From the NCBI GenBank assembly GCA_035454885.1, contig DATIGE010000038.1, positions 55,239 through 119,238 on the forward strand: a DNA stretch of 64,000 nt. Direction: 5' to 3'. The stretch comes from a bacterium (GTDB taxonomy: Bacteria > UBA10199 > JACPAL01 > GCA-016699445). Both the position numbers and the translations under genes were made by a program. The notes beneath the pieces were generated by a model. It was not told where the DNA came from, made no database searches, and saw only the letters and a program-made list of their open reading frames with translations. Shown in pieces: positions 4,706 through 48,225 of the stretch. Each line of letters begins with the position of its first letter. Within the stretch, counting starts at the first letter, position 1.

Positions 4706-5677
4706 TCAAAGCCACTTCTTCTTCCGGAAAAAGTAAATCAGCCCCCCCGCGACCGCCACCAAGAGCCCCAACGTCATGTAGTATCCGTGCTCCCATTCCA
4801 GCTCCGGCATGTGTTTGAAGTTCATCCCGTAGATTCCGGTGATGACGGTCAAGGGCAGCATGATGGCGGCGGAGATCGTCAGGAGTTTCATGACCTCGTT
4901 CGCCTTGTTGGAGGAGGTGAGCAGGTGGGCCTCGATCAGCCCGCCGATGGCGTCCCGGTTGGATTCGGTGCGGTCGGAGATCCTCACCAGGTGGTCCCGG
5001 ACGTTGGAAAGGTAGGGGATTGAGATGGGAAGGACCTCGTCGTAACCTTCCTTGACCAAGCTCATCAGCATGTCGATCTGCTGGGCACAGATTCGCTTCA
5101 AACGCGCCAAGTTCCTCTTAAGACTGAAGATTTCAGGCAGGAGGTTCTTTTCATGCTGTTCCAGGACGTTGTCCTCCAGGACGGCGATCCGGCGGTCGAA
5201 CTGGTCCAGGACGGGCATATAAAGGTTGACCATCTCGTCCAGGAGCCGGGCCATGAGGAAGTCCGCGCTCCGCATCGCAGACTTGGGGTTCCGCTCCGCC
5301 CGCTCCTTCGCCATGGCGGTGCTGCGGAGTTTGGGCTTGTGGTAGGTCACCAGGAAATTCGCCCCCAAAAACATGTCGAGCTCGGCCGTCTTGAATTCCC
5401 GGTCGGCCGACTCCGCCGGCAGTACCTCGTGAAAGATGAGAAAGATGTAATCGCCGTACTGGTCGATCTTGGGCTGGTGTCTCGGAGAGAGACAGTCGTC
5501 GATGGTCAGCGGGTGAAAGTTGAAGGCGACGTCCAGGAGTTCGGTCTCCTCCGGCGTCGGTTTTTCAATGTCCACCCACGTCACGCGTGTCTTGTCGGCG
5601 ACCAGGGCGCGGATCTCGGAGGCGTTCTTCACCTCCTGCATGCCGGAGGTCTCGCTGTAGGTGAAGATCGTCAGCAT
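4706..5677 (-). CDS. corA: Magnesium/cobalt transporter CorA
   Basis: 323 aa. C-terminal two TM helices with YGMNF (GMN) motif: IYGMNFKHMPELEWEHGYYMTLGLLVAVAGGLIYFFRKKKW. Confidence 0.85.
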   Translation of the reverse strand: MLTIFTYSETSGMQEVKNASEIRALVADKTRVTWVDIEKPTPEETELLDVAFNFHPLTIDDCLSPRHQPKIDQYGDYIFLIFHEVLPAESADREFKTAELDMFLGANFLVTYHKPKLRSTAMAKERAERNPKSAMRSADFLMARLLDEMVNLYMPVLDQFDRRIAVLEDNVLEQHEKNLLPEIFSLKRNLARLKRICAQQIDMLMSLVKEGYDEVLPISIPYLSNVRDHLVRISDRTESNRDAIGGLIEAHLLTSSNKANEVMKLLTISAAIMLPLTVITGIYGMNFKHMPELEWEHGYYMTLGLLVAVAGGLIYFFRKKKWL

Positions 5678-5787: not shown

Positions 5788-5871
5788 TTGACTAAAGCGG
5801 CTCATCCATGTTTTTTATGCCGCCGTAACCTGAGCATAATCAAAACCTAGCATCACGGAGGGGGTTCTAAG
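5788..5871 (+). promoter_or_regulatory. Candidate promoter and strong RBS upstream of first beta-helix array gene
   Basis: TTGACT at 5788-5793 with AT-rich stretch downstream (ttttttatgc, gcataatc). GGAGGGGG Shine-Dalgarno at 5857-5864, 7 nt before ATG 5872. Promoter assignment is tentative. Confidence 0.25.
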
Positions 5872-8151: not shown

Positions 8152-10347
8152 ATGGCGCTCTTGGGCGGATTGGTCCTGCCCTTGATTCCGGCGGTGGCCC
8201 AGGCCGACTGCACGACCCCGGCGACCTTCACGGTCACCAACTGTGGCGACGACGGCTCGGTGGGGACACTCCGCCAGTTGATCCACAGCGCCTCGGTTCA
8301 GGATTGCGACACGATCCAGATCCCGGCCTGTACGATCGTGCTCGACACGGCAGGGTCGACGTTCTTTGCCGAGACGGACGCGAACGCGGACCTGGATGTC
8401 GACAAGAGCATCACGATTCGGGGGGCAGGTCCCGGTAGCACGGTCATCGATGCCGACGGCGCTGTCACAGGCGCCCGCGTCTTTGAAATCGATCCGGACG
8501 ATACCGGCGTTGGCGTTACGTTCCAAGGCCTGACGATCACCGGCGGACAGCCGTCGTCCGGTGAGGGGGGCGGCATTCTGGTCAGCAATCACGGCGTGCT
8601 TACGGTGCTCGATAGCGCCGTTGACGGGAACGACTCGGATACGGTTGCCAGCTCCGCGGGGGGCGGTATCGCCCTGCCGGATGACGGTTCCCTGATTCTG
8701 ACCAACAGTTCGGTCTCCAACAACAAGTCGGGTGATAACGGCGGTGGCCTCTGGTTCTCGTGCGGCGACGCCACCTCGGGAATTATCTCCAACAGCGAAA
8801 TCGACGGAAATACGGCGGTCAGCAACGGCGGTGGCGGCGTCTACATCGACTGCGGAACATTGGAGGTGATCAACAGCCGGATCACGAACAATGTGTCGGA
8901 CGGAAACTATGGCGGCGGTCTTTGGAACGAATACGCTTCCGTGTATGTCCTCAATTCCGACTTTATCGGTAACCGTTCCGAAGGAAGCCAAGGCGGTGGC
9001 ATTGAAAACGACTACACCATCCTGATCGACAATTGCTTGATCCAAGACAACGTGGCGACGAGCTCCTCCGGTTATGGCGGGGGAGTCGCAAACGAGGACG
9101 GCGGGATCATGACCATCATGAACTCGACCATCGACGGTAATCGGGCCGACGACGACGGCGGCGGAATTTACAATGATTATTACGCCGTCAATATCATCAA
9201 TAGCACGATTTCCAACAATGTCGCCGATGCCGACGATGATGGATCCGGCAATGGCGGCGGCATCAGCAACGACGATTGCTATCACCTCTATGTGACCAAC
9301 AGCTTGATCATCAATAACCTGTCCAAAGGTGATATCGGGGGCGGCATTTATCAAGACGGATACGCCATCATCGATAACAGCACCATCGCCGGCAACGTTG
9401 CGGCAAACAATCACGGCGGCGGCATCTATACGGATTGCGAGCCCACGGTGATCCGTAACAGCACGATCTCGGGGAATGCGGCCCTCGGTGACGACGGTTC
9501 TGATGACAGCCAGGGCGGCGGTATTTGGAATACGTACCCCCTGCTCCTCACGAACACCACGATCGCGAACAACCGCGCCGACGGTCATGGCGGCGGAATC
9601 TACTCCGACGATGAAGGTACGAGCCTCAACAATGTCACGATGACCGGCAACGTCGCCGATGCCAATGAAGGTGGCCTCAGTGGCGGCGACGGCGGAGGCA
9701 TTTACAACATTGACCGCGTGGCGGTCACCAACAGCATCCTCGCGGGAAATCTCGACGCCAGCCCCGGCCATGAAGCCCCGGACTGCTACAACAACTTTAC
9801 CATTGACGGAGACAGTATCGAGATCCTTGGCCCCAACCTCATTCAAGACACATCCGGATGCGAACTTCAGGGCCAATTGAGTCTCCTCATAGAAGCGGAT
9901 CCCCTGTTCGCTCCCGCCGGGCTGGCCGACAACGGCGGTTCCGATCAGGGGGACGACCCCAAGGAGCCCGCCAAGACCATCGGTCTCCAAGCCGGGAGCC
10001 CGGCGATCAATGCGGGCGATAATGGGTCCTGCGAACCGACGGATCAGAACGGCGTTGCACGGCCCCAGGGTGACAATTGTGATCTGGGCGCAGTCGAAGT
10101 CTCGGCGGCGGTTGGCCCCGTCGACGACGAGGATGACGACGACGACGGCGTTCTCGACGTGGATGACAACTGCCCCGCTGACGCGAACGCCGACCAGGCC
10201 GATGCGGACGGTGACGGTGTCGGCGACGCCTGCGACAACTGCGTGGACGATGACAACGCCGACCAGGCGGATGCGGATGCCGATGGCATCGGTGACGCCT
10301 GCGATACGGACGGCGGCGGTAGCGGTGGTTGTTCTTTGATTCGATAA
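8152..10347 (+). CDS. Array unit B: paralogous beta-helix repeat protein, TSP3 repeats, truncated tag ending GGCSLIR-stop
   Basis: In-frame ATG at 8152 begins signal peptide [18 protein letters not shown] followed by [29 protein letters not shown]. Same repeat architecture as unit A. Ends ...[17 protein letters not shown] with TAA at 10345-10347. Confidence 0.75.
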
Positions 10348-10415
10348 ATGACATTGGGGGGCGGCCTCGCGGGGCCGTCCCCCTCCATTTGCTCACAACC
10401 CGAGGAGCGACTCTT

Positions 10416-12809
10416 ATGACCAAACGTCTCGGCATACTCTCAATCTTTGCCTCCTTTATCATCACGGGACTCGCCCTGAGCTCTCCAGCTACGGCAGCCA
10501 CCTGGACCGTGACCAACGCCGCGGATGACGGCTCCTCGGGGACCCTCCGGACGATCATCGAAAATCCGGCCGTCATCGACGGCGACGTGATCGTCTTCGA
10601 TGCCAGCGTCACCACCGTCACCCTGACCGATGACCTCGACATCAACAAGAGCATCACGATCCGCGGAAACGGCGCGGGGACAACGATCATCGACGCCAAT
10701 GGCGCGGTCACGAACGACCGGGCCATCGACATCGACGCCGATGACCGGGGGGTGCATGTCGCCATCGAGGCCCTCACGGTCCAGGGGGGGCGTGAGGACT
10801 CGGGAACCGGCGGCGGCATTCGGATTCGCAACTCCGGCTCCCTCCTTCTGAGGGATTGCGAGGTCAAGGACAACCAGGTGACTGCGGGATCGACCGACGG
10901 CGGGGGTATTGCCATCGAATCCGACGGCGCCTTGGTCGTCGAAAACTCCACGATCTCGGACAACGCGGCGACGCAGGACGGCGGCGGCATTTATGCAAAC
11001 GCCGGCTTCATCGAAATCAAGAACAGCTCGATCGAGAACAATATCTCAAGCTTCGGCGCTTCCACCACGGACGGGGACGGCGGCGGCATCTACTCGGAAG
11101 ATGGAACCCTTAATATCATCGATACCGCCATCAAAGGAAACATCGCCGGCGACAACGACAGCACGTTCGACGATCCGGAGGATACGAGCAGCGAGGGCGG
11201 CGGCATCTACACGACGAGCGATCAATCGGCCACGATCACGGGGTCCGGCGCCTGCGAGATCAGCGGCAACAAGTCCGGTGGTGATGGCGGTGGAATTCAT
11301 AACGGCGAACTCATGTCGATCGATAACTGCCTCATCGACGATAACCATGCGATGAATGACCACGATGGCGGCGGCATCTACACGGAAGATCTTCTGACCC
11401 TGACGGACAGCACCGTCAGCAACAACGACGCCGAGGACAACGGGGGCGGCATCTACAACAGCGGATCACTCACAATCTTGAACAGCACGATCTCGGGCAA
11501 CACGGCCGACGTGGACGCGGACCCCGATGGAAGCCAGGGCGGAGGCATCTACACGGATAACTACTTCTTCCTCAGTGGCAGCGTCGTCCGCGGCAATATC
11601 TCCGTGAGCGGAGAAGGCGGCGGCATCTACTCGGACAGCTCCAACTACATCATCATCGAATCGAGCGTCATCGCCGACAACGAAGCCAGCGATCACGACG
11701 CCGGCGGGATCTATAACACCGGCGCCCCGATGATCATCCGCAACAGCACGATCTCCGGAAACCGGGCCCTCGGAGATGAGAACGGCGGCGGGACGGACAG
11801 TATCGGCGGCGGCATCGTCTCCTATTATCCCCTCATGATGTCGAACACGACCGTGGCCAACAACGAGGCCGACGGCGACGGCGGCGGCATCTATGCCTCC
11901 GGCGGCGACGATCACTTCTTCAACAACGTCACTATTTCGGGCAACGTCGCGGACCAAGAGGGCGGGGCCGATGGCGTCGGCGGCGGAATCTACAACGACG
12001 CCACCGGCGTCACGATTACCAATTCGATCCTCGCCGACAACTCCGATGACGCAACCGCGCCCGACTGCTTCAGCGATTTCTCGGCTGGTGCGGTTTTTAC
12101 GTCCCTCAGCGCCAATCTCATCGAAGTTACGACCGGATGCGACGTGACCGGTTTGGGACTCGTCACCGGCGACCCGGCCTTGGCCGCCCTGGCGGACAAT
12201 GGTGGCCCGGACGCCGGCGACCCCGACAGCCCCGAGCCGATCCTTACCAGCGCCATCGCGGCCGGCAGCGCGGCCTTGGACGCGGGCGACAGCGGGACCT
12301 GCGAGTTGGATGACGAGCGCGGTACGAGCCGGCCTCAAGGTCCGGCCTGCGATTTGGGGGCCTTTGAGCTCTTCACCGATACGGACGGCGACGGCATCGA
12401 GGACAACTCGGACAACTGCCCGTCGACCGCCAACGCCGGACAGGAAGACGGCGATGCCGACGGCGTCGGAGACGTCTGCGACAACTGCGCGGACGATGCC
12501 AACGCCGATCAGGCCGACACCGACGGCGACGGAACGGGAGACGCCTGCGAGGCGGCCGTGACGCCTGCCACGGATACCGACGGGGACGGCGTCCCGGATT
12601 CGACGGATAATTGCGATGCCGTCGCCAACGCGGACCAGGCAGATGCAGACGCTGACGGGATCGGCGACGCGTGTGACGCGGAAGACGGCGGGGGCGGTTG
12701 CAGCCTCAACGCCGGTTCCACCGCCGCGCGCGGAGCCACGGAGGGTCTTTCAATGTTCCTGATGTCGATCCTGGCCTTTGCCGGATTATGCCTGTTCCGG
12801 GGTAGGCGC
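10416..12809 (+). CDS. Array unit C: paralogous beta-helix repeat protein with TSP3 repeats and full GGCSL-TM-RGRR sorting tag (no stop; continues into unit D)
   Basis: GAGGAG RBS 9-14 nt upstream of ATG 10416. Signal peptide [41 protein letters not shown]-domain. GGGIY repeats. Four TSP3 repeats. Tail [41 protein letters not shown]. First unit of 3089-aa ORF 10329..19598. Confidence 0.8.
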
Positions 12810-15068
12810 GTGGCCCGCCGTGCCCTTCCGGCCGCGGCGATCCTGCTCCTGTTTTCCAGCACCGGCCGAGCGGCGGACATAACCGTCACGAGCCTCCTGG
12901 ACGACGGTACACCAGGGACACTCCGCAATGCGATCGCGACCGCGCTGGACGGGGACGTGATCATCGTTCCGGCTGGAACCATCGTACTCACCCTGGCGGG
13001 CGGCGCCTTTGACGCCGACACATTCCCGGATTTGGACATTACGAAAACAATCACCATCCAGGGCGCCGGGGCCGGAAGCACCTTCATCGACGGCAGCGGC
13101 GACCTGACCGCCGACCGCGTCTTTCATATCGATCCCAACGACACCGGGGCGGGGGCGACCCTCGAAGGCATGACCATCCAGGCCGGAAAGCCTTCGGCCA
13201 ACGGCGGCGGCGTCCTCATCGACAACCGGGGCTCCCTGACCCTTGTCGACAGCGTCGTGAGCGACAACGAGACCAATGGAGCGGACGGCGGCGGCATTTA
13301 TCTGAATGAGGGCGCCTTGGCCGTGATCCGCTCGACCGTCCGGACCAACGTCGCCGACGGCAACGGCGGAGGCATCTACAATACCAGCGGCTCCCTGATC
13401 ATCTCCGATGGGAGTTCCGTCACCGGCAACATCGCGACCTCCTCCGGGGGAGGCATCTATACCGATGCGGGAGGGCTCGACGTCATCAACAGCCAAATCA
13501 ACAACAACGATGCGGACAGCGACGGCGGCGGTATCTACAACGGCTACACGGCCGTGGTCCTGAACAATTCGGATTTGAGCGGCAATACGGCCGAGGGCAA
13601 CGGCGGCGGCGTTTACAATGGTTATACGCTGCTGATCTCTGCCTCCACGGTCTCCCACAATCAGGCCCTGAATGACAGTGACGGCGGCGCTGTCTTCAAT
13701 GACGTGGAGCTCTGGGTCGAAGACAGTACCCTTTCCGACAATGGAGCCGATGACGATGGCGGCGCCATCTACAACAACTCAACGGCCGTGATCGAGCGCA
13801 GCACGATCGCCGACAATGCCACCGATATCGACTCCGACGGCTCCGAGGGCAATGGCGGCGGGATCAACACCGACGGTGATCTCTACGTGCGGGAGAGCAG
13901 CATCCTGAGAAACGTGGCCGGCGGCGGCGGCGTCGGGGGCGGTATCTCCGGCACGGGCAGTGAGTACACGGTCATTGATCGGAGCACCATTGCCGACAAC
14001 GTGGCCGCGGATAACGACGGCGGAGGCATCTATTTCGACAATTCCCAGACCATCATCACGAACAGCACCATCTCCGGCAACATCGCCCTGGGGGATCAGC
14101 ACAATTCGGCCTCAACCGACAGCCAGGGCGGCGGCATTTGGCACGACGAAGCGCTGACCATGACCAATTGTACGGTCGTCGGGAACCGTGCCGACGGCGA
14201 CGGCGGTGGGATCTACGTGAATTCCGACAGCGATGCGAACATCATCCTGAGCAACGTGACGATCACGGGCAATACCGCCGATGCCAACGAAGGAGGCTTC
14301 TCGGGCGGCGAAGGCGGAGGCGTCTTCAACGATCAGGGTGTGCTGCTCACCAATTCCATCATCGCCGGGAACACGGACGCCAGCTTCATTTCCACTTCCC
14401 CCGATTGCTACAGCAACTTTACCGGGGATGGTAACAACTTCACCGTCGTCGGACCGAATATCATCCAAAATCTGGATGGTTGCGAGGTCGTGGGAGACGT
14501 CTCAAGTCTCCGGAGCGACGATCCGCTCTTCGACCCGGCCGGCCTGGCCGACAACGGTGGCCCGACCCAGACCTTGGCCCTTCAGGCCGCGAGCCCTGCC
14601 TTGGACGTGGGTGACAACGGCTCCTGCGAACTCACCGACCAGCGCGGCACTGCGCGGCCCCAAGGCGCGGCTTGCGACTTGGGCGCCTTCGAATTGGAGC
14701 CCGACGCCGATGGCGACGGGATTCCCAATACTTTGGACAACTGCCCCGACGTCTCCAATGCGGACCAAACCGACACGGACGGCGACGGCGCGGGTGACGC
14801 CTGCGACACGGACGACGACGGAGACGGCGTCGCCGACGGGGTCGACAACTGCCCTCTGGTCGCCAACGCGGACCAGGCCGATGAAGACGGCGACGGGATC
14901 GGCGCCGCCTGCGACACCGATGACACCGGCGGCGGCACGACCGGCGGCGGAGGAAACGGTGGGGGATGCGGCCTAGTCGCGAGTGGTGATGCGAAGCCTC
15001 ATGTCACCTTCTGGGCCGTGTTCGCCGGCCTTGCGGCCTTAGCGGCGCTTCGGATGAGGAAAATCGCG
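12810..15068 (+). CDS. Array unit D: paralogous beta-helix repeat protein with TSP3 repeats and full GGCGL-TM-RMRK tag (no stop; continues into unit E); start codon uncertain (GTG)
   Basis: Signal-peptide-like (M/V)[20 protein letters not shown] followed by [24 protein letters not shown]. No in-frame ATG at the boundary, so GTG 12810 is proposed. Tail [39 protein letters not shown]. Confidence 0.65.
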
Positions 15069-17411
15069 ATGAAAAAAGGCTTTTGGATTTTGGCGCTGGC
15101 GTCATTGTTGCTTCCGTCCACCGCCGGTGCGGTTACCTACAACGTCGATCCAAACTCGATGGGTGCGGCGCCGACCGTTCCGGACGGAGATCCGGGGTCC
15201 CTGCGTTTCTATCTCGAGAACATCGCGCTCGCGGACGGCGACACCGTCGTCATCCCGTCAGGCACGGTCAATCTCGACTCAACCATCGGGGAGATTGAAA
15301 TCAGGCGGAACGTAACGATCCAGGGCGCAGGCGCTTCCGACACCATCATCGACGGAAACGGGGCCGGAGGCGGCGACGATCGCGTCTTCAGCATCGACCC
15401 GGACGACACCGGCATCGCGGTGACCATCTCGGGGGTCACCATCACGGGCGGCGATGTGGGCGCCAGCGGCGGCGGCATTCTCCTGAGCTGGACAGCGAGT
15501 CTGACCCTCATTGATTCGGTGGTCGACGGAAACCACTGCACCACCAGCGGTGGCGGCATCGATGTGGAGGATCAGGGAACCCTCGTGCTCATCAACAGCA
15601 CGGTCTCCAACAACACCGCGGACAACGACGGCGGCGGTATCTGGAGCGGCGAGGGGTTCGTCCATGTCATCGGCAACAGCGTCATTGGGCCCAATAATCA
15701 GGCCCTCGGCAGCTACGGCGGCGGCATTTACACTAGCGGCGGCGTCCTTCAGATCGTGGACAGCCAGGTCACGGGCAACCGCGCGGACGATTATGGCGGC
15801 GGGCTCTATCTCGACAGCAACCAAGATACCTCGGCCTATCTCCTGAATTGCGAGATCACCAACAACGCGACCATCAACGATGACGGCGGGGGGATCTATA
15901 ACGACAGCACCCTCTTCATCGACAACTGCCGGATCGCCGGAAACACAGCAGACGGAGACGGCGGCGGCATCGACAATAGTGAACATCTCACCCTAATCAA
16001 CAGCACCATCTTCGGCAATCACGCCAACGAAAGCGCGGGTGGTATCTACAACGACGACGGTCTCACAATCAGCAACTCGACCATTTCCGAGAATATCGCC
16101 GACTTTAACGACGACGGTTCCGGCGGTTACGGCGGCGGAATCTACAATAACGACTATCTTTCACTCTCCGACAGCTTGGTCAGCAACAATATTTCAATCA
16201 GCAACAACGGCGGCGGTATCTATTTCAACGATTACGCCGTTCTGGACGGAGTGGCCGTCACGGGCAACATCGCCCAAGACGACGACGGAGGCGGCCTTTA
16301 TGTCGACGGGGACCCGGTTGTCCTACGGAACTGCACCATTTCCGGAAACGCCGCCCGCAACAACAGCGACGGGGGTGGACTTTATACGACCTATGCGATG
16401 GATATCTCCAACACGACCATCGCCAACAATACGGCAGACGGCAACGGCGGCGGACTTTACAACGATTCCGGCGGTGACGGCATCCTTCTCAACAACGTGA
16501 CCATTACGGGTAACGAATCGGACGCGGATGCGGCCGGCGGTGGTGACGGCGGCGGATTCTATGACGACAACTCGGACGCCGTCATGATCAACACGATCAT
16601 CGCGGGCAATACGAGCCCCAACCTGGGGGATGACTGCATCAGCGATTCGACCGCCGGCGCGAGTACGTTGACCTCGGGCGGTCCCAACTTCGTCGGTGTC
16701 GTCGATACCGACTGCGACATTGAGGGCGACGATACGGCCGTCCTGACCGGAGACCCCGGCTTCGCCGCGGCCGGCCTGGCCGACAACAACGGTCCCTTGG
16801 TCGGAGACCCCGAGGCCCCGGTCCGGTTGCAGACGGTTGCCCTGGCCCCGGCCAGTGCCGCGGCCGAAGCGGGCGACAATGCAAGTTGCGCCTTGACCGA
16901 CGAGCGCGGCGTGACCCGGCCCCAGGGCGCCGATTGTGACCTGGGAGCGTTTGAACTGGTCGTGGATACCGACGGCGACGGGGTAAGCGACGACGTCGAC
17001 AACTGCCCCGCTGCATCCAACGCCGATCAGGCGGACGGTGATGCCGACGGTGTGGGCGACGTCTGTGACAACTGTCCGGCGGACGCCAACGCCGACCAGG
17101 CGGACGCGGACGGCGACGGGACGGGCGACGTCTGCGAGGCGCCTCCCGCGGTCTGCGGCAATGGAGACGTGGAGACCGGTGAAGGATGCGACGACGGCGA
17201 TACGGACGCGGGAGACGGTTGCAGCGACACCTGCAGCGTGGAAGCCGGTTTCACCTGTTCCGGGGAGCCCTCCGTCTGCACCGAAACGGCCGGGGACGGC
17301 GGAGGCTGCTCCCTGACGGACGGGGGCACATCGGCGGCTGCGACCGGCCCCTTGATGGCGATTTTCGCAGGTTTAGGGGTCCTGTTTCTCCGTCGCATGG
17401 GGAAAAAAACA
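15069..17411 (+). CDS. Array unit E: paralogous beta-helix repeat protein with TSP3 repeats, Myxococcus-type Cys-rich repeat and full GGCSL-TM-RRMGKK tag (no stop; continues into unit F)
   Basis: GAGGA RBS 8-12 nt upstream of ATG 15069. Signal peptide [39 protein letters not shown] repeats. TSP3 repeats. [35 protein letters not shown] (Myxo_disulf_rpt-like). Tail [39 protein letters not shown]. Confidence 0.75.
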
Positions 17412-19598
17412 ATGAAAAAGGCTCTGTTGGGCATGGGATTTCTGGCCTTGATGCTTCCGGCGGGCACGGTGGGTGCGGCGACCTTTACCGTGACGAAGAT
17501 CACGGACGACGCCCCGGATGGCAACTGCGACGCCGATTGCTCCCTGCGCGAGGCCGTTATTGCGGCCAATGCAAGCGTCGGAGTTGATGACGAAATCGTG
17601 ATTCCGGCCGGAATCTATCAGTTGACCATTGCCGGCGCGGGCGAGGACCTTGCCGCGACGGGCGATCTTGACATTACGGACAATGTGATCATCACCGGAT
17701 CCGGCTCTCTGACGACCGTCATTGAAGGCAATGGTGCCGCCACTGGAGATCGGGTCTTTCATATCGATGCCGGCGCGAGTCCCGGCGTTGCCGCGAGCGT
17801 CGTGATGACCGGCGTCACCATTCAAGGAGGCAATGTCAGTGGGAGCGGGGGTGGAATAAACATCGACAATCGCGGTTTCTTGAGGATCGTAGACAGCCTC
17901 GTCTTTGGAAATGACGCTACAGGCGATGGCGGCGGTATTCACTTGGACGATGACGGTTCGGGCCTAGTCGTGGAAAACTGTACCCTTTCCAATAATATCT
18001 CGGAGGACGATGGCGGAGCCATCAGCAACGACGACGGCTCCCTTCTCGTCAAGAACAGCACGATTGCTGAAAACAAGGCCGGCGATGACGGCAGCGGAAA
18101 CGGCGGCGGCATCTACAACAACGAGGACGGGGCCGAGATCATTGACACCCGGGTCGTTGACAACGAGACTGGAAGTTCGAGCGGCGACGGCGGCGGCATC
18201 ATGAATGACTACGGGGCGATGACCATCACCGGCAGCGGCAACTGCGAAATCAGCGGAAACCGCACCCTTGCCGGCGAGGGTGGGGGAGTCGACAACGAAT
18301 ACACCATGCTGATCGACAACTGCCTGATCGCCGAAAACCAGGCCCTGGACGACAACGACGGCGGCGGTGTCTACAACGACGATGAGATGGTGATCCTGAA
18401 CAGCACGATCAGCGGGAACCGCTCCGAAGACAGCGGCGGGGGCGTCTATAACTACTACCACATCACCATCGACAACAGCACGATCGCCGACAACATCGGA
18501 GACACCGACGAGGATGGAGGCGGCGGCGGCGAAGGCGGCGGCGGGATCCACTTCGACGACTGGAGCACGGTCAGTAACTCCATCATTTCCGGAAACACAC
18601 ATCTGACCGGAGAGGGCGGCGGTATCGACGCCTATTACTACTTCGTCCTCGATAACTGCCTCATTACCGGCAACACCGCGGCGGACAATGACGGCGGCGG
18701 GATTGCGACCGATTACCCCGGCGTCATCCGGAACACTCTGATCAGCGACAATCGTGCCCTTGGGGATCAGAATAATTCGGCCACGGACGACAGCAATGGC
18801 GGCGGCATTGCGACAGACTACCCGCTCCAGATCATCAACACGACCATTGTCAACAACCAGGCGGATGGCCATGGCGGCGGAATTTGGAGTGATGATAAGC
18901 TGGACTTGAACAACGTGACGATCGCCTTCAACACGTCGGACGCGAATGAGGGAGGTTTTACGGGCGGCGACGGCGGCGGAATTTACAACGATGATGACAT
19001 GGTATTCAGCAATACCCTCATTGCCGGCAATACCGACGCGAGCCCCGGCGCCGAGGCCCCGGATTGCCTCAACGACTTCACGGGTGCCGGGAACAGCATG
19101 GCTTCGAGCGGGCCCAACATAGTCCAAGACCCGTCTGGTTGTGAGATCACCGGTGATCCGACGGGCGTCCTGAATGTGGACCCCCTCTTTGATCTGGCGG
19201 GTCTGGCGGACAACGGCGGTCGGTTCGCCGGCGACGAGCCGACCTCGGTGGTCCAAAGCCTCTCCCTGCAGGCCGGGAGCCCCGCGATTGACGCCGGTAA
19301 CAACGCCACCTGCGACCCGACCGACCAGGTCGGTACCGATCGTCCCGTCGGCGACGCCTGTGACCTGGGCGCCTTGGAGGTTACAACCCCCGCGGCCCCC
19401 CCGGTTCCGCCGGTCGTGCCTGCTGTTTGTGGAAACGGCGACGTGGAGACCGGTGAGGGCTGCGATGATGGCGACACCACTGCGGGCGACGGTTGCAGCG
19501 CTACCTGTGTGGTCGAAGATGGCTTTACCTGCACGGGTGAACCGTCGGTCTGTACCGAGGAGTCGGGAGGCAGCGGCGGTTGCAGCTTGATTAGATAA
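17412..19598 (+). CDS. Array unit F: paralogous beta-helix repeat protein with canonical CSLREA motif, Myxococcus-type Cys-rich repeat, no TSP3 repeats, truncated tag GGCSLIR-stop
   Basis: ATG 17412. Signal peptide [23 protein letters not shown]-domain ...[31 protein letters not shown] repeats. Ends ...[56 protein letters not shown] with TAA 19596-19598. Confidence 0.75.
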
Positions 19599-23173: not shown

Positions 23174-24178
23174 TTGAAACCGGCAACCTGGCAATCGAAA
23201 CTCCTGGCGTGGTACCGCAAGAACCGTCGCGATCTTCCGTGGCGTCGGACGAAGGACCCCTACGCCATCTGGGTCTCGGAGATCATGCTGCAGCAAACCA
23301 CCGTCGAGGCCGTCATCCCTTACTACGAGCGCTTTCTGAAACGATTCCCGACGGTGAAGGCGTTGGCCGCCGGTTCCGAAGAAGACGTCCTGAGGCTCTG
23401 GTCGGGGCTCGGTTATTATTCGCGGGCGAGGAACCTGCACAGGGCGGCGGGGATGATCGTGGAATTGCCCGGCTCGGTCGAAGAATTGATGAAATTACCC
23501 GGTATCGGCCGCTACACCGCCGGCGCCATCGCCTCCATCGCTTTCGGTCGGAAGGCGCCGATCGTCGACGGCAACGTCATCCGCGTCCTCTCGCGGATCT
23601 TCGCGATCCGCGAAGATCCGAAATCGTCCGCAGGTCAAAAAGTGTTTTGGGGAATGGCCCAGCAAATCCTGCCGCACAAGCATTGCGGAGATTTCAATCA
23701 GGCCGTCATGGAGTTGGGCGCAACGGTCTGTTCGCCCGAAAATCCCTCCTGCCTTTCTTGCCCCGTTTCGACGGATTGCCTCGCCCGGAAGAAGGGAAGG
23801 CCCGAAGAATTCCCCAAAGGAAAGAAAAGGACGGAGTACCGCGACGTCCTCATGGTTGCGGCTGTCGTCCGGAAGGAAGGCAGGATTCTTTTTGTGCGGC
23901 GTCCTCAACAAGGTCTTCTCCGCGGGATGTGGGAGCTGCCCATGGTGACGGGGGATTCTCGGGATTTAGGGAAAGATTGGCCGGTGGACGTGGCTCGCGC
24001 GCTGCCAATGGTCCGTCACTCCGTCCTCAACCGTCGCCTCAAGATCTTACCGTTTCTCTGCGAACTCCGGGGGACCGCCTCCTGGCCTTGTGAGCACCGT
24101 TGGACCCGCCTTTCGGAGGTGGATTCCCTCCCCACCTCCTCCATGAACCGGAAAATCCTCAAGCATCTCAGAGACTAA
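23174..24178 (+). CDS. mutY: A/G-specific adenine DNA glycosylase
   Basis: 334 aa. HhH-GPD domain (LPGIGRYTAGAIASIAFG). FeS cluster cysteines CSPENPSCLSCPVSTDC. C-terminal NUDIX-like domain. Confidence 0.85.
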   Translation: MKPATWQSKLLAWYRKNRRDLPWRRTKDPYAIWVSEIMLQQTTVEAVIPYYERFLKRFPTVKALAAGSEEDVLRLWSGLGYYSRARNLHRAAGMIVELPGSVEELMKLPGIGRYTAGAIASIAFGRKAPIVDGNVIRVLSRIFAIREDPKSSAGQKVFWGMAQQILPHKHCGDFNQAVMELGATVCSPENPSCLSCPVSTDCLARKKGRPEEFPKGKKRTEYRDVLMVAAVVRKEGRILFVRRPQQGLLRGMWELPMVTGDSRDLGKDWPVDVARALPMVRHSVLNRRLKILPFLCELRGTASWPCEHRWTRLSEVDSLPTSSMNRKILKHLRD

Positions 24179-28730: not shown

Positions 28731-30582
28731 GATACAGAATCTCCATAAACAGTACGGCGCTCAAGTCCTTTTTGACGACGCCTCACTTCAGATGGGACCG
28801 GGAGAGCGCTTAGGGTTAGTGGGCCGGAACGGGCACGGCAAGTCCACGCTCTTGCGGATCATTTTGGGCGAGGATGAGGCGGACGAGGGCTCCGTCGTAC
28901 TGCCCCGCGGCTACCGTCTCGGCCACCTGGCCCAGCACATCCGTTTCTCGAGGCCGACGGTCCTGGAGGAGGGCTGTCTCGGGCTCCCGGAGGGCGAGGA
29001 GCACGACTCTTATAAGGTGGAGCGCATCCTCTTCGGCCTGGGCTTCACCAAGGAGGACATGGACCGCCCTCCGGAGGAATTCTCAGGCGGCTATCAAGTG
29101 CGCCTCAACCTCGCCAAGGTCCTGGTCTCGCACCCGAATCTGCTCCTTTTGGACGAGCCCACCAACTACCTGGACATCGTCTCCATCCGCTGGATCACGA
29201 AGTTCCTCCGGGCCTGGGAGGGCGAGATGATCCTCATTTCCCACGACCGGGAGTTCATGGATTCCGTGACGACGCATACGGCGGCGATCCACCGGCAAAA
29301 GATCAAGAAGGTGCAGGGCGGGACCGAGAAGCTCTACGCCCAGATCGCCCAGGAGGAGGAGATCCACGAGAAGACGCGCGTCAACGAGGAGAAGAGGCGG
29401 CAGCAGATCGAGGCCTTCGTGACGCGCTTCAAGGCCAAGGCCTCCAAGGCCGCGGCGGCCCAGTCCCGGGTCAAGATGCTGGAGAAGATGCCCAGCCGAG
29501 AGGTGTTGGCGCGGATCGCGGATCTGGACTTCGAGTTCCGTTACGCCCCGTTCGAGGCGAAGACGATCTTGGAGGCCCAGGGGCTCTCGTTCGGATTCGA
29601 CGAGGAATTGTTCCATGACTTGAATCTCACGATCGGCGCCAAGGACCGCATCGCCGTCATCGGCAAGAACGGCAAGGGCAAGTCGACGCTCTTGAACGTG
29701 CTCGCCGGGGAATTCGCTCCCAAGTCGGGCAGTATCCGCACCCATCCGAACATGAAGCTCGGCTACTTCGGCCAGACCAACATCGACCGGCTGCATCCGA
29801 AGCTGACGGTCGAGGAGGAGATCGGCAACGCGAACCTCGAGCTCAGCCGCACGAGCGTGCGCGGGATCTGCGGCATCATGATGTTTTCGGGGGAGGCGGC
29901 GGAGAAGCGCGTCTCGGTCCTCTCCGGCGGCGAAAAAAGCCGCGTCCTCTTGGGCAAGATCCTGGCCTCGCCCGCGAACCTCCTTTTCTTGGACGAGCCG
30001 ACCAACCACCTGGACATGCAGTCGATCGAGGCCTTGGTGGACGCCATCGACCTCTTCGAGGGCGCGGTCGTCATCGTGACCCACAGCGAGATGATCCTCC
30101 GGGAAGTGGCGACCAAGCTGGTGGTCTTCCAGCACGGAGACGCCGAGGTCTTCAACGGGACCTACGCGGAGTTCTTGGACAAGATCGGTTGGGAAGAGGA
30201 ATCGACGGATGGTAGGGGCACGGCGCGCCGTGCCCCTACGGCGGCGCCGCCGATTCCACAGGAACCCGTCAACAAGAAGGAATCCCGGAAGAAAAGAGCC
30301 GACGTCATCGCCGAGAAATCCAGAATCTTAACGCCGCTGAAGAAGGAAATGGAAACCCTCGAGGCGGACATCTGCCGCCTGGAGTCAGAGCAGGCCGCCG
30401 TGAATCAAGAGCTGGCGGCGGCTTCCGAGGGCAAGAACATCGACGCCTTCGTGAGGCTCTCGAAGAAGATGAAGGAGATCCAGGACGAGATCGAGGAGAA
30501 ATTCGGGCGTTTGGAAACGGCGACCAAGAAGCACGACGAGAAGAGCCGCAAGTACGAGGCGCTCCTCGAGGAGGCGCCGTGA
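28723..30582 (+). CDS. ABC-F family ATPase (two ABC domains, no TM; YheS/Uup-like) with C-terminal coiled coil
   Basis: 619 aa. Two Walker A motifs (GRNGHGKST, GKNGKGKST). Two LSGG signatures. Lys/Glu-rich C-terminal tail. Confidence 0.85.
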   Translation: MIKIQNLHKQYGAQVLFDDASLQMGPGERLGLVGRNGHGKSTLLRIILGEDEADEGSVVLPRGYRLGHLAQHIRFSRPTVLEEGCLGLPEGEEHDSYKVERILFGLGFTKEDMDRPPEEFSGGYQVRLNLAKVLVSHPNLLLLDEPTNYLDIVSIRWITKFLRAWEGEMILISHDREFMDSVTTHTAAIHRQKIKKVQGGTEKLYAQIAQEEEIHEKTRVNEEKRRQQIEAFVTRFKAKASKAAAAQSRVKMLEKMPSREVLARIADLDFEFRYAPFEAKTILEAQGLSFGFDEELFHDLNLTIGAKDRIAVIGKNGKGKSTLLNVLAGEFAPKSGSIRTHPNMKLGYFGQTNIDRLHPKLTVEEEIGNANLELSRTSVRGICGIMMFSGEAAEKRVSVLSGGEKSRVLLGKILASPANLLFLDEPTNHLDMQSIEALVDAIDLFEGAVVIVTHSEMILREVATKLVVFQHGDAEVFNGTYAEFLDKIGWEEESTDGRGTARRAPTAAPPIPQEPVNKKESRKKRADVIAEKSRILTPLKKEMETLEADICRLESEQAAVNQELAAASEGKNIDAFVRLSKKMKEIQDEIEEKFGRLETATKKHDEKSRKYEALLEEAP

Positions 30583-43972: not shown

Positions 43973-44566
43973 ATGCGCGGCGCCGTTTTGAAATCGATCG
44001 CCCGGATCGAGGCCCGATTGTCGGAGGACCCGAGGCTCGAGAAAACGAGCTCCGAAGAAGGTCCGCGCGATCTGCTGTTCGTTCGCCGAGTCGTCTCGTG
44101 GGTGGGCCGTTTATCCCCGAGCCCCTCTGAATCCCTCCTTCTCGCGGCGTGGGGCCACGTCCTCGACCGCTGGACGCTCCCGCGTGACAGCCAGCCCCAA
44201 AAATATCCGATGACCACGGCCGGCTACCACAAATGGCGGAAGGCCCTTAACCTCATCTCGGCCGACGCGACGTCGAAGATCCTGAGCGAGGAGGGCGTCG
44301 ACGAGAAGGCCATCTCGCGGGTGCGCGATCTGATCCTCAAGAAGAATTTTCCCTCCGACCCCGATTCACAGTCCTTGGAGGACGCCGATTGCCTGGCCTT
44401 TTTGGAATTGAAGCTCGAAGGGTATTTGGAGGAATGGGACGAGGCCAAGACCGTCCGGATCCTTCGCGGTACGTTGGAAAAAATGACACCGCGCGCCCGC
44501 GAGATGGCCGCCCGGATCCCCTTGCCCGAAAAGGCGGTCGCCCTCTTGAAGAAGGCCTCTCCCTAG
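43973..44566 (+). CDS. Hypothetical protein (DUF4202-like; assignment from memory, uncertain)
   Basis: 197 aa soluble protein. No catalytic motifs recognised. Confidence 0.45.
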   Translation: MRGAVLKSIARIEARLSEDPRLEKTSSEEGPRDLLFVRRVVSWVGRLSPSPSESLLLAAWGHVLDRWTLPRDSQPQKYPMTTAGYHKWRKALNLISADATSKILSEEGVDEKAISRVRDLILKKNFPSDPDSQSLEDADCLAFLELKLEGYLEEWDEAKTVRILRGTLEKMTPRAREMAARIPLPEKAVALLKKASP

Positions 44567-44585
44567 TTATCCACAATGTGGATAA
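44567..44585. promoter_or_regulatory. Perfect palindrome of two DnaA-box consensus 9-mers (TTATCCACA-A-TGTGGATAA)
   Basis: Exact TTATCCACA and its reverse complement separated by 1 nt, in an AT-richer intergenic segment ~105 nt upstream of histidine kinase 44691. Confidence 0.4.
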
Positions 44586-44690
44586 CCATCTTAACAGGCT
44601 GATATTCCTTGCCTTCTGACGCATAGAGTCATCACTTTTCACTGGCCCAACCCCCCAACGATATGAAAGAAAGAGGGTCCGAAAGAAACT

Positions 44691-46094
44691 ATGGCGGTTA
44701 CGGCCATCCTTCCCATCTTGGACGTCGTGCAGTTGATCACCTCCGCAACCAGCCGGTTGACGGGAGGCGTTCCCTCCCATGCGGTGGCCACCGATGTGCT
44801 CTCCGCCGCCGAGCGGTGGAGAAAGAGGAATTTGGAAGACCGCTTGGAGCCGCTCCAAGAATTGGCGACGTCCCAGGCGGAAAAGGGTTCCGCCTCCCGC
44901 CGGGACGTGGCCCTGGCGCTTCGGGAATTTGCCCTTAGCATCGTCCCCCTCGCCAATCCTCATCAGCAGGGGCTTCTGAATTCCCTCAGCGCCGAACTGC
45001 AGGGCGTCCTGCAGGAATCGGATCCTACGGAGCCGGTGAGCGGCGTCTTTCGGCTCCGCACCGGGCGCTCGGAGCGCGACGCCCGGGCCCGCGTGGATCG
45101 GAACGTGCGGGAGGCCTTTTTCGTCTCCATCGGTGGCGCCCTCCACGACACCAACAACACCCTGACCGTCTTGGGTCTCACGGTCGCCACCGCGAAGAAG
45201 AAGATTAGGGATTTTCCAGACGCCCCGGCCTTGAACGAGATCATTTTGGACATCGAGCATCAGATCGACGTGATTGCGACGCTCATCAAACAGATGAGGG
45301 GCCAGATTGACTCCCAACGTGACGACTACGGAGGCGATCCGGCGGACTTGAAGACGCTCCTGTTCTCCGAGGGCCACGTCCATCAGGTCTTTACGAAACT
45401 GGCCAAACTCCTCCACCCGCTCGGCCGGTTGCAAAGGACGCTCCGCCTGAGACCCCGGGACGGGGAGGGGGGCGGCGTTGTGTGGAGCGTCCTGGAATCG
45501 GTCGGGACGTCCATCGATCTGACGAAGCTGTCCGCCACCCTCTTCCGGAGATTGCTCAGGCTTCAGGACCTTTGCGAACAGACGGAGTGCCCGTTTTCCA
45601 TCAATCCCCATGCCTACCTGAGGGAGGATATGATCCAGGCGATCCTGGGAAAGGGCATCCGGCTTCGCATGGACCTCGATCCCTCGCCCTGGACCGTGCG
45701 CGGACCGTCCATCCGGATCTGGCAGGTGATCATCAACCTGGTTGGCAACGCGCGGCAGGCCATGGAGGACTTTGGGAGCATGGAAATATCAACGCGCCGC
45801 GTGAGCCTCACGGCGGAAGAGGCCGAGTCTCTTCCGCACGATTCTGCAAGCTGCTCCCCGAGGGCGGGCGATTACATGCAGTTGACGATCCGGGATGCGG
45901 GCCCCGGCATCCCTGCGGGGCTTATGGGAAGAATCTTCGACCTCTTCTACAGCGGCCGGAACTCGAGCGGTTACGGTCTGGCCGTGACCCGCGAGCTGGT
46001 GGAGGACATGGGAGGCTTTCTCGGAATCGACTCCGAGACGGAGGGCGAAGGTCACGGGACGGCCTTTCATATTTACCTTCCCCGGGCTTCCTAA
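44691..46094 (+). CDS. Cytoplasmic sensor histidine kinase (no TM; HATPase_c), paralog of 46234..48225
   Basis: 467 aa. H-box ALHDTNNTLTVLGL. N box IRIWQVIINLVGNARQAM. G boxes DAGPGIP / GYGLAV. Confidence 0.75.
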   Translation: MAVTAILPILDVVQLITSATSRLTGGVPSHAVATDVLSAAERWRKRNLEDRLEPLQELATSQAEKGSASRRDVALALREFALSIVPLANPHQQGLLNSLSAELQGVLQESDPTEPVSGVFRLRTGRSERDARARVDRNVREAFFVSIGGALHDTNNTLTVLGLTVATAKKKIRDFPDAPALNEIILDIEHQIDVIATLIKQMRGQIDSQRDDYGGDPADLKTLLFSEGHVHQVFTKLAKLLHPLGRLQRTLRLRPRDGEGGGVVWSVLESVGTSIDLTKLSATLFRRLLRLQDLCEQTECPFSINPHAYLREDMIQAILGKGIRLRMDLDPSPWTVRGPSIRIWQVIINLVGNARQAMEDFGSMEISTRRVSLTAEEAESLPHDSASCSPRAGDYMQLTIRDAGPGIPAGLMGRIFDLFYSGRNSSGYGLAVTRELVEDMGGFLGIDSETEGEGHGTAFHIYLPRAS

Positions 46095-46098
46095 ATCT

Positions 46099-46139
46099 TT
46101 ATCCATTCATTTGAATCAACTTGGAACAACGTTGGATAA
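46099..46139. promoter_or_regulatory. Inverted repeat TTATCCA(N27)TGGATAA in AT-rich intergenic region upstream of second HK paralog
   Basis: tttatccattcatttgaatcaacttggaacaacgttggataaa. Half-sites share the TTATCCA core with the palindrome at 44567. Confidence 0.3.
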
Positions 46140-46233
46140 AAACTTTTCCATTTTCTTTGTAAAATCAATCAGTTAGGCCAGTTTTTCCTAGCAACGCCAA
46201 GACCGGCCATGCGAAAAGGCGCCATAGGCCATT

Positions 46234-48225
46234 ATGCCGGCGCTCGCGATTACAGACGTCTTTCACCAAATCCTCCACTGGACGGTGATGCTGTCCCAAG
46301 GGGTCGATCCCTCGGAAATCCACAACGAGATGGCGGCCTCCGTTCCTCAATGGCAGGAAGCGCCTGAGTTGAGGGCCCCACTGGCCCACATCAGCAGCCT
46401 CCTACCCCCCAGGCCCGACACGATGCCTCCGGCATCGGGCGTCGTACCGGTGACGCGCGAACGGCTCGTCCAGGCCTTGGACGATACGATCCGGGACTTG
46501 GAGGTCACGACGGACGACCTTCAATTGCGGGAAAATATCGATAGCCTCCGGAGAAGATTCGCGCGGCTGAAACAAGGAGACGGCGAGGCCGTTTCGATCG
46601 CGCCGCCCGTTCTTCGCGTCCACGGAACGCGCGAGATCTCCGGGGAGATCATCGCACAGCAGATGGCGGATGCCTTGCGGGACGCCCTGGCCAAGGTGAC
46701 CCACGACGCTAACAACATCCTAACCGCCCTCACGGGCGAGATGACCGTCGCGGAGGAGACCTGCCAGAGGGTCGACTTCCTGGCCCGACGGCACTTTCAT
46801 CTCATTCCCGGCGACGTCAGGGTGCGGTTGAGCGGCACGCTCGAATCGATGGACCGCGTCCTGGACGGCATGAGCGGCGTTCTCATGAACGTCGCGCAGC
46901 TTGTCCGGGGCGTTCAGCGGGTCATCGCGTCCCTGAGGGACGTGGGCGCCGGCGCCGATCTCGAGCGGACTCGGCTCGCGTCGGACGGAGGATTGATCGC
47001 CCAAATCACCATCGGTCTCTTCGACCTCTTGACGGACGCCGGAAGGGCCGAGGAGAACTTGAGGGAGATGAACCTCATCGCCGACCAATACGGTCACGTG
47101 GCCTCGGCCGAGGATCTCGCGGAGGGTTTGGCCCTCCTCCGCGACCTTTCCGAATGCTTTCAGACCGCCAAGGAACTGACTGCGCTGACCGTCGACCTCT
47201 TCCGGCTCCATCAGGAATTCGTCTTGGGGCTCAAGAACGGCGGCGAGGGGGCCGCGGACCTGCACGCCCACCTGAACAAAAGGACCTTGTCCGCGTTCAT
47301 GGGCCGGGGGGTCGAGGTGGAATTCCGCCTCGACGGCGAGCCCTGGAGGATTCCCGGTCCTTCCATCCGGGTCTGGCAGGTGATCCTCAACAACATCGTC
47401 AACGCGCGGGACGCCATGGGCGGGAGCGGCCGGCTGTCCGTCTCCACCCGCAAAGTGCTTCTGGACGAGGACGACGCGGCAAGGCTCTCCGCACCCTTGA
47501 TTCGCGGGACGCACCGCGCCGGCGATTTCATGATGCTCCAAGTCAGCGACGATGGTCCGGGCATTCCGCCCCATGTCCTGCCCCGGATCTTCGATCCGTC
47601 CTTCAGCGGCAAGAACTCGACGGGTTTGGGGCTGGCGGTGACCCTCCAGATCGTCCAGACCATGGGCGGCTTCATCGCCGTCCGGACGTCGACGGCCCCC
47701 GAAAATCACGGGACGGTCTTTTCGATCTATTTCCCCAGGGCGGAAGAGGCCCCGCCCCCCCCTCTCCGGCCCCTGCCGGAGACGGGCCGCGAAATCGTGC
47801 TGGTCGTCGACAACGAGGAGTTGATCCTGCGCACGGCGAAACGCGTCTTGATGGCGAGGGGACACGGGGTCCTGACGGCGTCGGGAGGCCGGGAGGCCGT
47901 GGACCGCGCGCAAGAGTGGTACCGGGACCTCTCGCGTCCCCCGATCAGCGCCGTCCTGCTCGATATCAACATGCCGGGCGTCGCGACGCGCGCGCTTTTG
48001 GAAAAACTCCGGACCGTCGATCCCCACATGGTCTGCCTGTTTCAGAGCGGGATAGACGGCCTCCCCGAAGACCTCCAGGACGTCGAGATGGCGGGTTTCC
48101 TCCCCAAGCCGGCGTCGGCCGACGAGCTGGTGGGGCAGATGAGGTTCCTGCTCAACCGCATGCGGAGGAACCGGCCGACGCTACCAGCCCCGCCACGGCT
48201 TTCACCCAAAGGGGATGGTCGTTGA
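46234..48225 (+). CDS. Hybrid sensor histidine kinase with C-terminal receiver domain (cytoplasmic)
   Basis: 663 aa. H-box VTHDANNILTALTG. HATPase_c IRVWQVILNNIVNARDAM...GLGLAV. REC domain EIVLVVDNEELILR...LLDINMPGV... Confidence 0.8.
   Translation: MPALAITDVFHQILHWTVMLSQGVDPSEIHNEMAASVPQWQEAPELRAPLAHISSLLPPRPDTMPPASGVVPVTRERLVQALDDTIRDLEVTTDDLQLRENIDSLRRRFARLKQGDGEAVSIAPPVLRVHGTREISGEIIAQQMADALRDALAKVTHDANNILTALTGEMTVAEETCQRVDFLARRHFHLIPGDVRVRLSGTLESMDRVLDGMSGVLMNVAQLVRGVQRVIASLRDVGAGADLERTRLASDGGLIAQITIGLFDLLTDAGRAEENLREMNLIADQYGHVASAEDLAEGLALLRDLSECFQTAKELTALTVDLFRLHQEFVLGLKNGGEGAADLHAHLNKRTLSAFMGRGVEVEFRLDGEPWRIPGPSIRVWQVILNNIVNARDAMGGSGRLSVSTRKVLLDEDDAARLSAPLIRGTHRAGDFMMLQVSDDGPGIPPHVLPRIFDPSFSGKNSTGLGLAVTLQIVQTMGGFIAVRTSTAPENHGTVFSIYFPRAEEAPPPPLRPLPETGREIVLVVDNEELILRTAKRVLMARGHGVLTASGGREAVDRAQEWYRDLSRPPISAVLLDINMPGVATRALLEKLRTVDPHMVCLFQSGIDGLPEDLQDVEMAGFLPKPASADELVGQMRFLLNRMRRNRPTLPAPPRLSPKGDGR

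Follow-up and report, generated by a model that had tools for sequence, protein, structure and literature searches.

The window, by which we mean the whole stretch of DNA analysed (64,000 nt, with a GC content of 0.62), contains among its genes recQ, a SpoU methylase gene, a DUF4202 gene, two histidine kinase genes (HK1 and HK2), hemH, gdh and hemN; the ferrochelatase gene lies downstream of the kinases in convergent orientation. The DUF4202 and HK1 genes are separated by a spacer of 124 nt whose local GC content is 0.46-0.47, in agreement with the AT-richer intergenic setting described in an earlier note on this DNA, and it is this spacer that holds the palindrome analysed here. The HK1 start at 44691 was confirmed by alignment of the orthologues, and the distance from the end of the palindrome to this ATG is 105 nt, just as the note had put it. 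In the HK1 translation an H-box-like HDTNNTLTVL can be read directly. The same note had called HK1 an orphan kinase, which is not strictly correct, since the gene that follows encodes a paralogue, a hybrid kinase that carries a receiver domain. The features of the region are collected in Table 1.

Table 1. Coordinates of the genes, box-like elements and conserved blocks around the palindrome (positions of the window).
Feature	Position	Strand	Remarks
DUF4202 gene	43973-44566	+	stop codon abuts the palindrome; upstream neighbour in 6/7 loci
DnaA box I, TTATCCACA, exact consensus	44567-44575	+	sequence match and shuffle test
DnaA box II, reads TGTGGATAA (TTATCCACA on the - strand)	44577-44585	-	convergent with box I, 1-bp gap
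CTTAACA, semi-conserved	44590-44596		appears, from alignment, to correspond to the third box-like element of L127 (GTTGGATAAG) and to the element upstream of HK2 (GTTGGATAA)
Conserved CTGATATT block, TGAT invariant	44599-44606	+	at the -35 position of a putative promoter
Invariant block TGACGCAT-aga-GTCATCAC	44617-44635	+	7/7 loci
Conserved TTTTCACTGGCC block	44636-44647	+	common to the HK2 upstream region (TTTTCCCTGGCAAC)
Histidine kinase HK1, 467 aa	44691-46094	+	HATPase_c is the one domain recognised (Pfam)
Box-like GTTGGATAA (TTATCCAAC on the - strand, 2 mismatches; TTATCCACT in L131)	46131-46139	-	conserved upstream of HK2
-10-like TAAAAT of the HK2 gene (TATAAT in L123)	46160-46165	+	conserved; putative, from alignment
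Hybrid histidine kinase HK2, HATPase_c and receiver	46234-48225	+	paralogue of HK1, with a paralogous upstream region

A profile search found seven members of the HK1 family among 5.8 billion proteins, and a metagenome scan with an N-terminal kinase alignment returned two loci, neither of them new beyond the seven. For the EttA protein encoded on the same contig, the closest relatives that bear a name come from metagenome-assembled genomes labelled Deltaproteobacteria or just "bacterium". Exact-protein look-ups of HK1 and HK2 in assemblies gave no match; the look-up of the DUF4202 protein gave two near-identical Logan contigs. A weak match to the ALIL pseudoknot falls within the part of HK1 that spans 45238-45361 of its coding sequence and is almost certainly due to chance (20.6 bits, with a gathering score of 50). 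Elsewhere in the window, two adjacent giant ORFs on the + strand (5851-10347 and 10323-19598, of 1498 and 3091 aa) have an identical C-terminal motif, which may serve both proteins for sorting or anchoring.

Precisely, the palindrome spans positions 44566-44586 and reads GTTATCCACA-A-TGTGGATAAC, i.e. a perfect 10-1-10 inverted repeat around the A at 44576. The earlier note had recognised two exact DnaA 9-mers in inverted orientation around this A, which holds, and had given the palindrome an extent of 44567-44585; the repeat is real and is one base longer on each side (G44566 and C44586), G44566 being also the final base of the TAG stop codon of the DUF4202 gene. The DnaA 9-mer consensus TTATNCACA (TTATCCACA) is matched exactly only twice in the 64-kb window, at 44567 (+) and at 44577 (-). 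In dinucleotide shuffles of the window the mean number of exact TTATCCACA matches was 0.14, and two exact boxes were reached in 0 of 100 shuffles. Relaxing the box to TTWTNCACA gave no further site anywhere in the window. The earlier note had proposed to count the motif across the source genome, its being common there to speak against DnaA; in the 64 kb together with about 70 kb from relatives, the motif occurred only at the palindrome site. The window contains three perfect palindromes with arms of at least 10 nt, this one included; the other two (30216-30235 and 23596-23618, GGGCACGGCGCGCCGTGCCC and GATCTTCGCGATCCGCGAAGATC) are GC-rich.

DnaA boxes are a component of replication origins, and the 9-mer is what the palindrome has in common with oriC. 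In the 64 kb analysed, only matches with two mismatches were found near the palindrome, at background density, rather than a cluster of boxes. No unwinding element is adjacent, the nearest stretch with at least 73% AT (46087-46176) being 1.5 kb away; the cumulative GC skew climbs smoothly through the region with no switch; and a tblastn search with five DnaA proteins found no dnaA in the window, which likewise has no dnaA/dnaN neighbourhood. As a box cluster, an adjacent unwinding element, a skew switch and dnaA/dnaN are all missing here, we rejected the origin reading, which the earlier note had also set aside.

We compared the window with six distinct orthologous loci, in which the kinase is 85, 84, 82, 81, 76 and 45% identical to HK1. 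The 9-1-9 dyad is present in 7/7 loci, at about 105 nt from the kinase start (109 nt in the locus L127). The palindrome region reads GTTATCCACAATGTGGATAAC in the window and in L130, GTTATCCACAATGTGGATAAA in L132, GTTATCCACAGTGTGGATAAG in L126, CTTATCCACAATGTGGATAAG in L127, GTTATCAACAGTGTTGATAAG in L123 and GTTATCCCCAATGGGGATAAG in L131. Exact consensus boxes are retained in five of the seven lineages; the only variant arms are TTATCCCCA (L131) and TTATCAACA (L123), with changes at positions 6 and 7, in the core of the box, and both of these lineages altered both arms identically. The two-fold symmetry extends to 63/63 alignment cells and was matched by 9 of 500 shuffles, figures to be read with the fact that seven orthologous loci in total make for weak covariation statistics. 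As a dyad, conservation is limited to the inner 9-1-9 and stops exactly where the 9-mers stop: in the orthologue alignment the flanking pair varies (G..C, G..A, G..G or C..G), and both A and G occur at the centre.

The locus with the kinase of 45% identity, L127, is the one that differs most in its surroundings, with an MMPL transporter gene in place of DUF4202 upstream and with HK2 absent. Its 9-mers are identical to those of the window. Since the dyad is kept there despite the different upstream gene, the site goes with the kinase gene and not with the 3' end of DUF4202; and since the 9-mers are the same across a divergence that leaves 45% identity in the protein, it is the sequence, and not mere pairing, that is constrained, which points to a protein reader. 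The spacing from the palindrome to the invariant blocks downstream is constant in all loci, except for one 1-nt deletion. The palindrome is a conserved, sequence-specific, promoter-linked site and not a chance match. A third TTATCAACA, upstream of recQ in L123, was considered as a lineage-specific box and discarded, as the alignment identifies it with a conserved promoter-like TTGATAATT that is box-like there by chance.

Downstream of the palindrome the HK1 loci share the conserved blocks CTGAT(A/T)TT, TGACGCAT-N3-GTCATCA and TTTTC-CTGG, followed by a purine-rich run before the ATG. A -10-like TAGAGT is found at 44624-44629 (TAnAGT in 5/7 loci, TTAAGT in L132 and TCTTGT in L127). It was not called by a promoter consensus scan, and it is likely to be the HK1 -10 element because its TA(G/A)AGT+CATCA corresponds to the TAAAAT/TATAAT+CAATCA of HK2. 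The block at 44599-44606 would then match a -35 poorly (TTGATA-like, the spacer being 19 bp), and the TTTTCACTGGCC block is probably the start of the 5' UTR. The distance from the palindrome centre to TAnAGT is 48 bp, which would put the palindrome at about -60 from the predicted transcription start. A sigma-54 reading of the common TTTTCnCTGGC block was rejected on direct inspection, which found no conserved GC at -12. The invariant block at 44617-44635 can also be written as TGAC-N7-GTCA; it overlaps the putative -10, is unchanged even at 45% kinase identity, and may serve as another operator or belong to a promoter of unusual type.

The region upstream of HK2 is paralogous to that of HK1 by alignment, and its box-like element falls at about -41 to -33 relative to the putative HK2 start. 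Together with the HK2 -10, this GTTGGATAA lies in the HK1-HK2 spacer (46087-46176), in which the AT content is at least 73% over about 90 nt. It aligns with a third tandem element that is retained beside box II in L127 alone, where positions 5422-5450 hold three box-like elements, TTATCCACA-A-TGTGGATAA-G-TTGGATAAG (-> <- <-), the third with two mismatches. This alignment suggests that the ancestral layout may have had three boxes. The single box of HK2 and the third tandem box of L127 fit a reader that binds as one monomer per box better than an obligate dimer. The case for the HK2 box is weakened by its two mismatches and by the near variant TTATCCAAA, which is not enriched near other double boxes. 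An inverted repeat of the form TTATCCA-N27-TGGATAA before HK2 was not retained as a conserved element, its copy at 46099 lying in an insertion private to the window.

In other species, at least 120 sites carry exactly this 9-1-9 double box, against a chance expectation of about 9 in 596 Gb by our own estimate, which is based on uniform composition. Among the 120 matches listed, about 80% have extra boxes nearby and about 20% are isolated pairs, 13 lie beside dnaA, and in 51 the dyad extends to G..C, with several much longer palindromes. In four settings the double box is conserved within a clade. In the Bacillus cereus group it has an htrA-like gene on one side and rlmH/yydA on the other. Its counterpart in B. 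subtilis, the yycS-yydA spacer, belongs to the eight stable DnaA-binding regions of that species; DnaA represses yydA there, and conservation of the site in B. anthracis and B. cereus had been predicted (PMC2533591). In Saprospiraceae the double box is 185-330 nt upstream of nrdB.

Other groups of matches have settings of their own. In Actinobacteria, Corynebacterium, Arthrobacter and Nocardioides included, the double box is conserved, with extra boxes around, beside a rhomboid protease gene and ppiA (27 loci, among them L013, L027, L036, L065, L107, L108, L114 and L116), and this may be an undescribed DnaA-binding locus. Thirteen metagenome-assembled genomes of Acidobacteriaceae (L014, L024, L043, L046, L053, L054, L059, L067, L072, L078, L103, L104 and L111) share a double box which, with CCTGTGGAT after it, lies 12-22 nt past the stop codon of a gene for a 430-aa membrane protein with no Pfam match. 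In Clostridium (L007, L025, L071, L083, L105, L112, L113 and L115) the palindrome is inside the coding sequence of folA (DHFR), where it encodes LIHSVDN, with thyA adjoining and further boxes near; given this coding position, we did not consider these matches as clean regulatory examples.

Viral contigs (IMG/VR) were also considered. Exact double boxes occur there in convergent orientation with gaps of 0 bp (17 loci), 1 bp (11 loci), 2 bp (25 loci) and 3 bp (at least 120 loci), in everted orientation with a gap of 1 bp (40 loci) and in tandem with a gap of 2 bp (at least 120 loci). All these counts are far above chance. The convergent 1-bp gap is the rarest arrangement tested, and we discarded the idea that 9-1-9 is a preferred arrangement in viruses, as the 3-bp gap is at least 10 times commoner. 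Some viral contigs carry arrays of exact double boxes, consisting of three convergent 3-bp-gap pairs about 53 bp apart in one case and of three everted pairs in the other (L239, 7065-7191, and L153, 8740-9987, respectively).

The variant arms of the orthologues can be judged against the boxes that naturally accompany double boxes. For this ranking we used the companions lying within 300 bp of consensus double boxes at 120 unrelated bacterial loci among the matches listed, a distance within which one-mismatch boxes are about 13-fold enriched at those loci. The two arms TTATCCCCA and TTATCAACA rank second and third among the 27 one-mismatch variants (29 and 23 occurrences, respectively), after TTTTCCACA. 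As the variants rank so high among natural companions, the evolution of the site stayed within the natural repertoire of DnaA boxes. Variation at the site is confined to changes tolerated by DnaA, as seen in these ranks and in the ending of the dyad at the box edges.

Our best explanation, which we regard as an even call, is that the palindrome would be a conserved DnaA operator, placed some 60 bp ahead of the putative HK1 transcription start, by which kinase expression would be coupled to the initiator. The two consensus 9-mers are convergent and 10 bp apart from centre to centre, that is, one helical turn, and they would form a high-affinity DnaA site in the HK1 promoter region, with two DnaA molecules on the same face of the DNA. 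The position at about -60, in front of a promoter with a weak -35, would be that of a classical upstream activator. HK1 transcription would then follow the amount or the activity of DnaA, HK2 transcription might do likewise through its weaker single box, and the two-component phosphorelay would thereby be coupled to replication status. The arrangement suggests that replication status may control the kinase. Activation is slightly favoured over repression or roadblock, given a site at about -60 and a -35 that is weak. We infer DnaA as the reader, the assignment of the promoter and the sign of the regulation from the DNA sequence. The earlier note had proposed a DnaA-controlled promoter: what stands of this is a conserved, promoter-linked, sequence-specific site, and the case for DnaA as its reader is strengthened, as a prediction that falls short of proof.

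The known cases closest to this reading are the non-origin promoters bound by DnaA (sda, ywlC, yydA and dnaA in B. subtilis, nrdAB and dnaA in E. coli, gcrA in Caulobacter), which likewise have consensus boxes in the promoter of a non-replication gene. They differ from the present case in that the target here would be the kinase gene itself. A link from replication to kinases has a precedent in the sda target of B. subtilis, which feeds into the sporulation kinases (PMC2533591). The stable sites of B. subtilis are clusters of 4-8 boxes, and with a threshold of at least four boxes within about 100 bp (PMC2533591) the palindrome does not qualify as such a cluster, having two boxes, in a perfect palindrome. 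In E. coli, the boxes preferred by DnaA stand in tandem with 2-3 bp between them (Stringer, Fitzgerald and Wade 2024, PMC11317965). The E. coli "double DnaA box", which serves a DnaA dimer as its functional unit at the promoters of the regulon (PMC11317965), is like our site in being a close pair of boxes; the two differ in that the boxes of our site are convergent, with a 1-bp gap, instead of tandem with a gap of 2-3 bp. In summary, we would describe the palindrome, with roughly balanced confidence in the DnaA operator, as a DnaA-box operator at a non-origin promoter, of a known type, in which the recurrence of 9-1-9 and the strict symmetry are the noteworthy parts.

This symmetry (63/63 cells), not required by independent DnaA boxes, counts against DnaA, and so do the location of the variant positions in the box core, the tandem preference of E. 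coli DnaA, the rarity of the convergent 1-bp gap in viral contigs and a promoter that the consensus scan does not call. The symmetry could reflect a dimeric reader, a hairpin, or template-switch copying between the arms. We consider it unlikely, though to be taken seriously, that the palindrome is, in line with the alternative given in the earlier note, the operator of another homodimeric transcription factor, either lineage-specific or widespread, whose half-site coincides with the DnaA box or mimics it. Such a factor would account for a dyad that is perfect in 7/7 lineages, two symmetric double substitutions included, and the 9-1-9 geometry is typical of helix-turn-helix dimers. Generic pairs of DnaA boxes, on the other hand, are often asymmetric: among the other convergent pairs of all loci collected, asymmetric ones predominate, and with a 3-bp gap 53 pairs had a single imperfect arm ("1+0"), 10 were asymmetric double variants ("1+1") and 2 were symmetric. 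The extension of the dyad to G..C in many of the matches elsewhere, several of them far longer palindromes, goes in the same direction. Against a factor of this kind, no regulator gene is consistently adjacent, the only one in the vicinity being that of an OmpR-type response regulator, 3-8 kb away and of a family that usually binds direct repeats. Moreover, a half-site that coincides with the 9-mer consensus and whose conservation ends at its edges would be improbable by coincidence (about 1e-5 per palindrome), the variants of the orthologues equal natural DnaA-box variants, and at HK2 a single half-site alone is kept.

A palindrome that follows a stop codon directly may also act as a nucleic-acid hairpin, i.e. 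as an RNA stem-loop, placed either at the 3' terminus of the transcript from upstream or within a leader produced by read-through, with a role in stability, processing or termination, or as a DNA cruciform. The predicted hairpin has 9 bp and a loop AAU (-10.1 kcal/mol as RNA, -6.5 kcal/mol as DNA), appears in both the minimum-free-energy and the centroid folds, and is retained by the variants, in which two stem pairs changed on both sides (C-G to A-U and A-U to C-G) and none was broken. The AU-rich stem with no U-tract does not make an intrinsic terminator, since only 3-4 of the 9 pairs are G-C and CCATCTTAAC follows, and the terminator scan makes no call; the search of Rfam 15 gave no match at the palindrome down to E=1. 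Furthermore, 7 of the 9 pairs are invariant even at 45% protein identity, by which sequence rather than pairing appears to be constrained, and in L127 the upstream gene is a different one and ends about 100 nt away, with the distance to the kinase start kept. Template switching at quasipalindromes is a mutational mechanism and not a function, and it would explain identical changes of both arms by transversion with no intermediates. The double changes seen here are transversions with no wobble intermediate, which such copying would fit at least as well as selection for pairing. On balance we consider the hairpin improbable.

Less probable again is a DnaA site that serves the control of DnaA on the chromosome, by titration or by DARS-like nucleotide exchange, and whose position by the kinase is historical. 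Opposed boxes are an essential feature of the DARS core, in which they are 5 bp apart and a third box is required (PMC6868365). Oppositely oriented boxes I and II, as in DARS1 and DARS2, are present here too, and in L127 a further box-like element is oriented like box II, so that the -> <- <- of this locus resembles DARS boxes I-III, an arrangement that the paralogue alignment suggests may be ancestral. The isolated pairs among the matches listed elsewhere are also compatible with this role. The gap is however 1 bp instead of 5 bp, box III is degenerate in 6/7 lineages (CTTAACA stands in its place in the window), there are no regulatory regions of IHF or Fis type to examine, and DARS is a nucleotide-exchange site and not a promoter element, whereas the constant 48-bp spacing to the promoter-like blocks and the retention of the site after replacement of the upstream gene argue for a link to the promoter. 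Finally, a chance palindrome with no function, for which one could cite the three perfect palindromes of the window, is barely credible and is effectively refuted by conservation, as the 9-mers are 100% conserved where the kinase protein is only 45% identical, and no shuffle reached two exact boxes.

A bolder form of the DnaA-operator reading would be that the convergent 9-1-9 is a distinct, cross-phylum dock for a head-to-head DnaA dimer, apart from the tandem pairs of E. coli. It would be used outside origins at sites like rlmH/yydA, nrdB, the rhomboid-ppiA locus of Actinobacteria and the promoters of dnaA, and would be wired here to a kinase promoter, having derived from a DARS-like three-box module that was duplicated with the kinase, and its symmetry would be actively maintained. 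We regard this proposal, taken as a whole, as rather unlikely.

Several phyla have kept exact convergent 9-1-9 pairs at particular loci outside origins, unlike the tandem unit known from ChIP-seq in E. coli. The arrangement could therefore be a cheap predictor of members of the DnaA regulon in uncultured bacteria, and it could be a test case for two DnaA molecules on one helical turn. If another regulator reads the palindrome, it is an ordinary operator. If DnaA reads it, the kinase gene joins the DnaA regulon directly, and this would be a one-step link from replication initiation to two-component signalling, in a lineage for which metagenomes are the only source, with a logic comparable to that of DnaA-sda-KinA in Bacillus, minus the intermediary.
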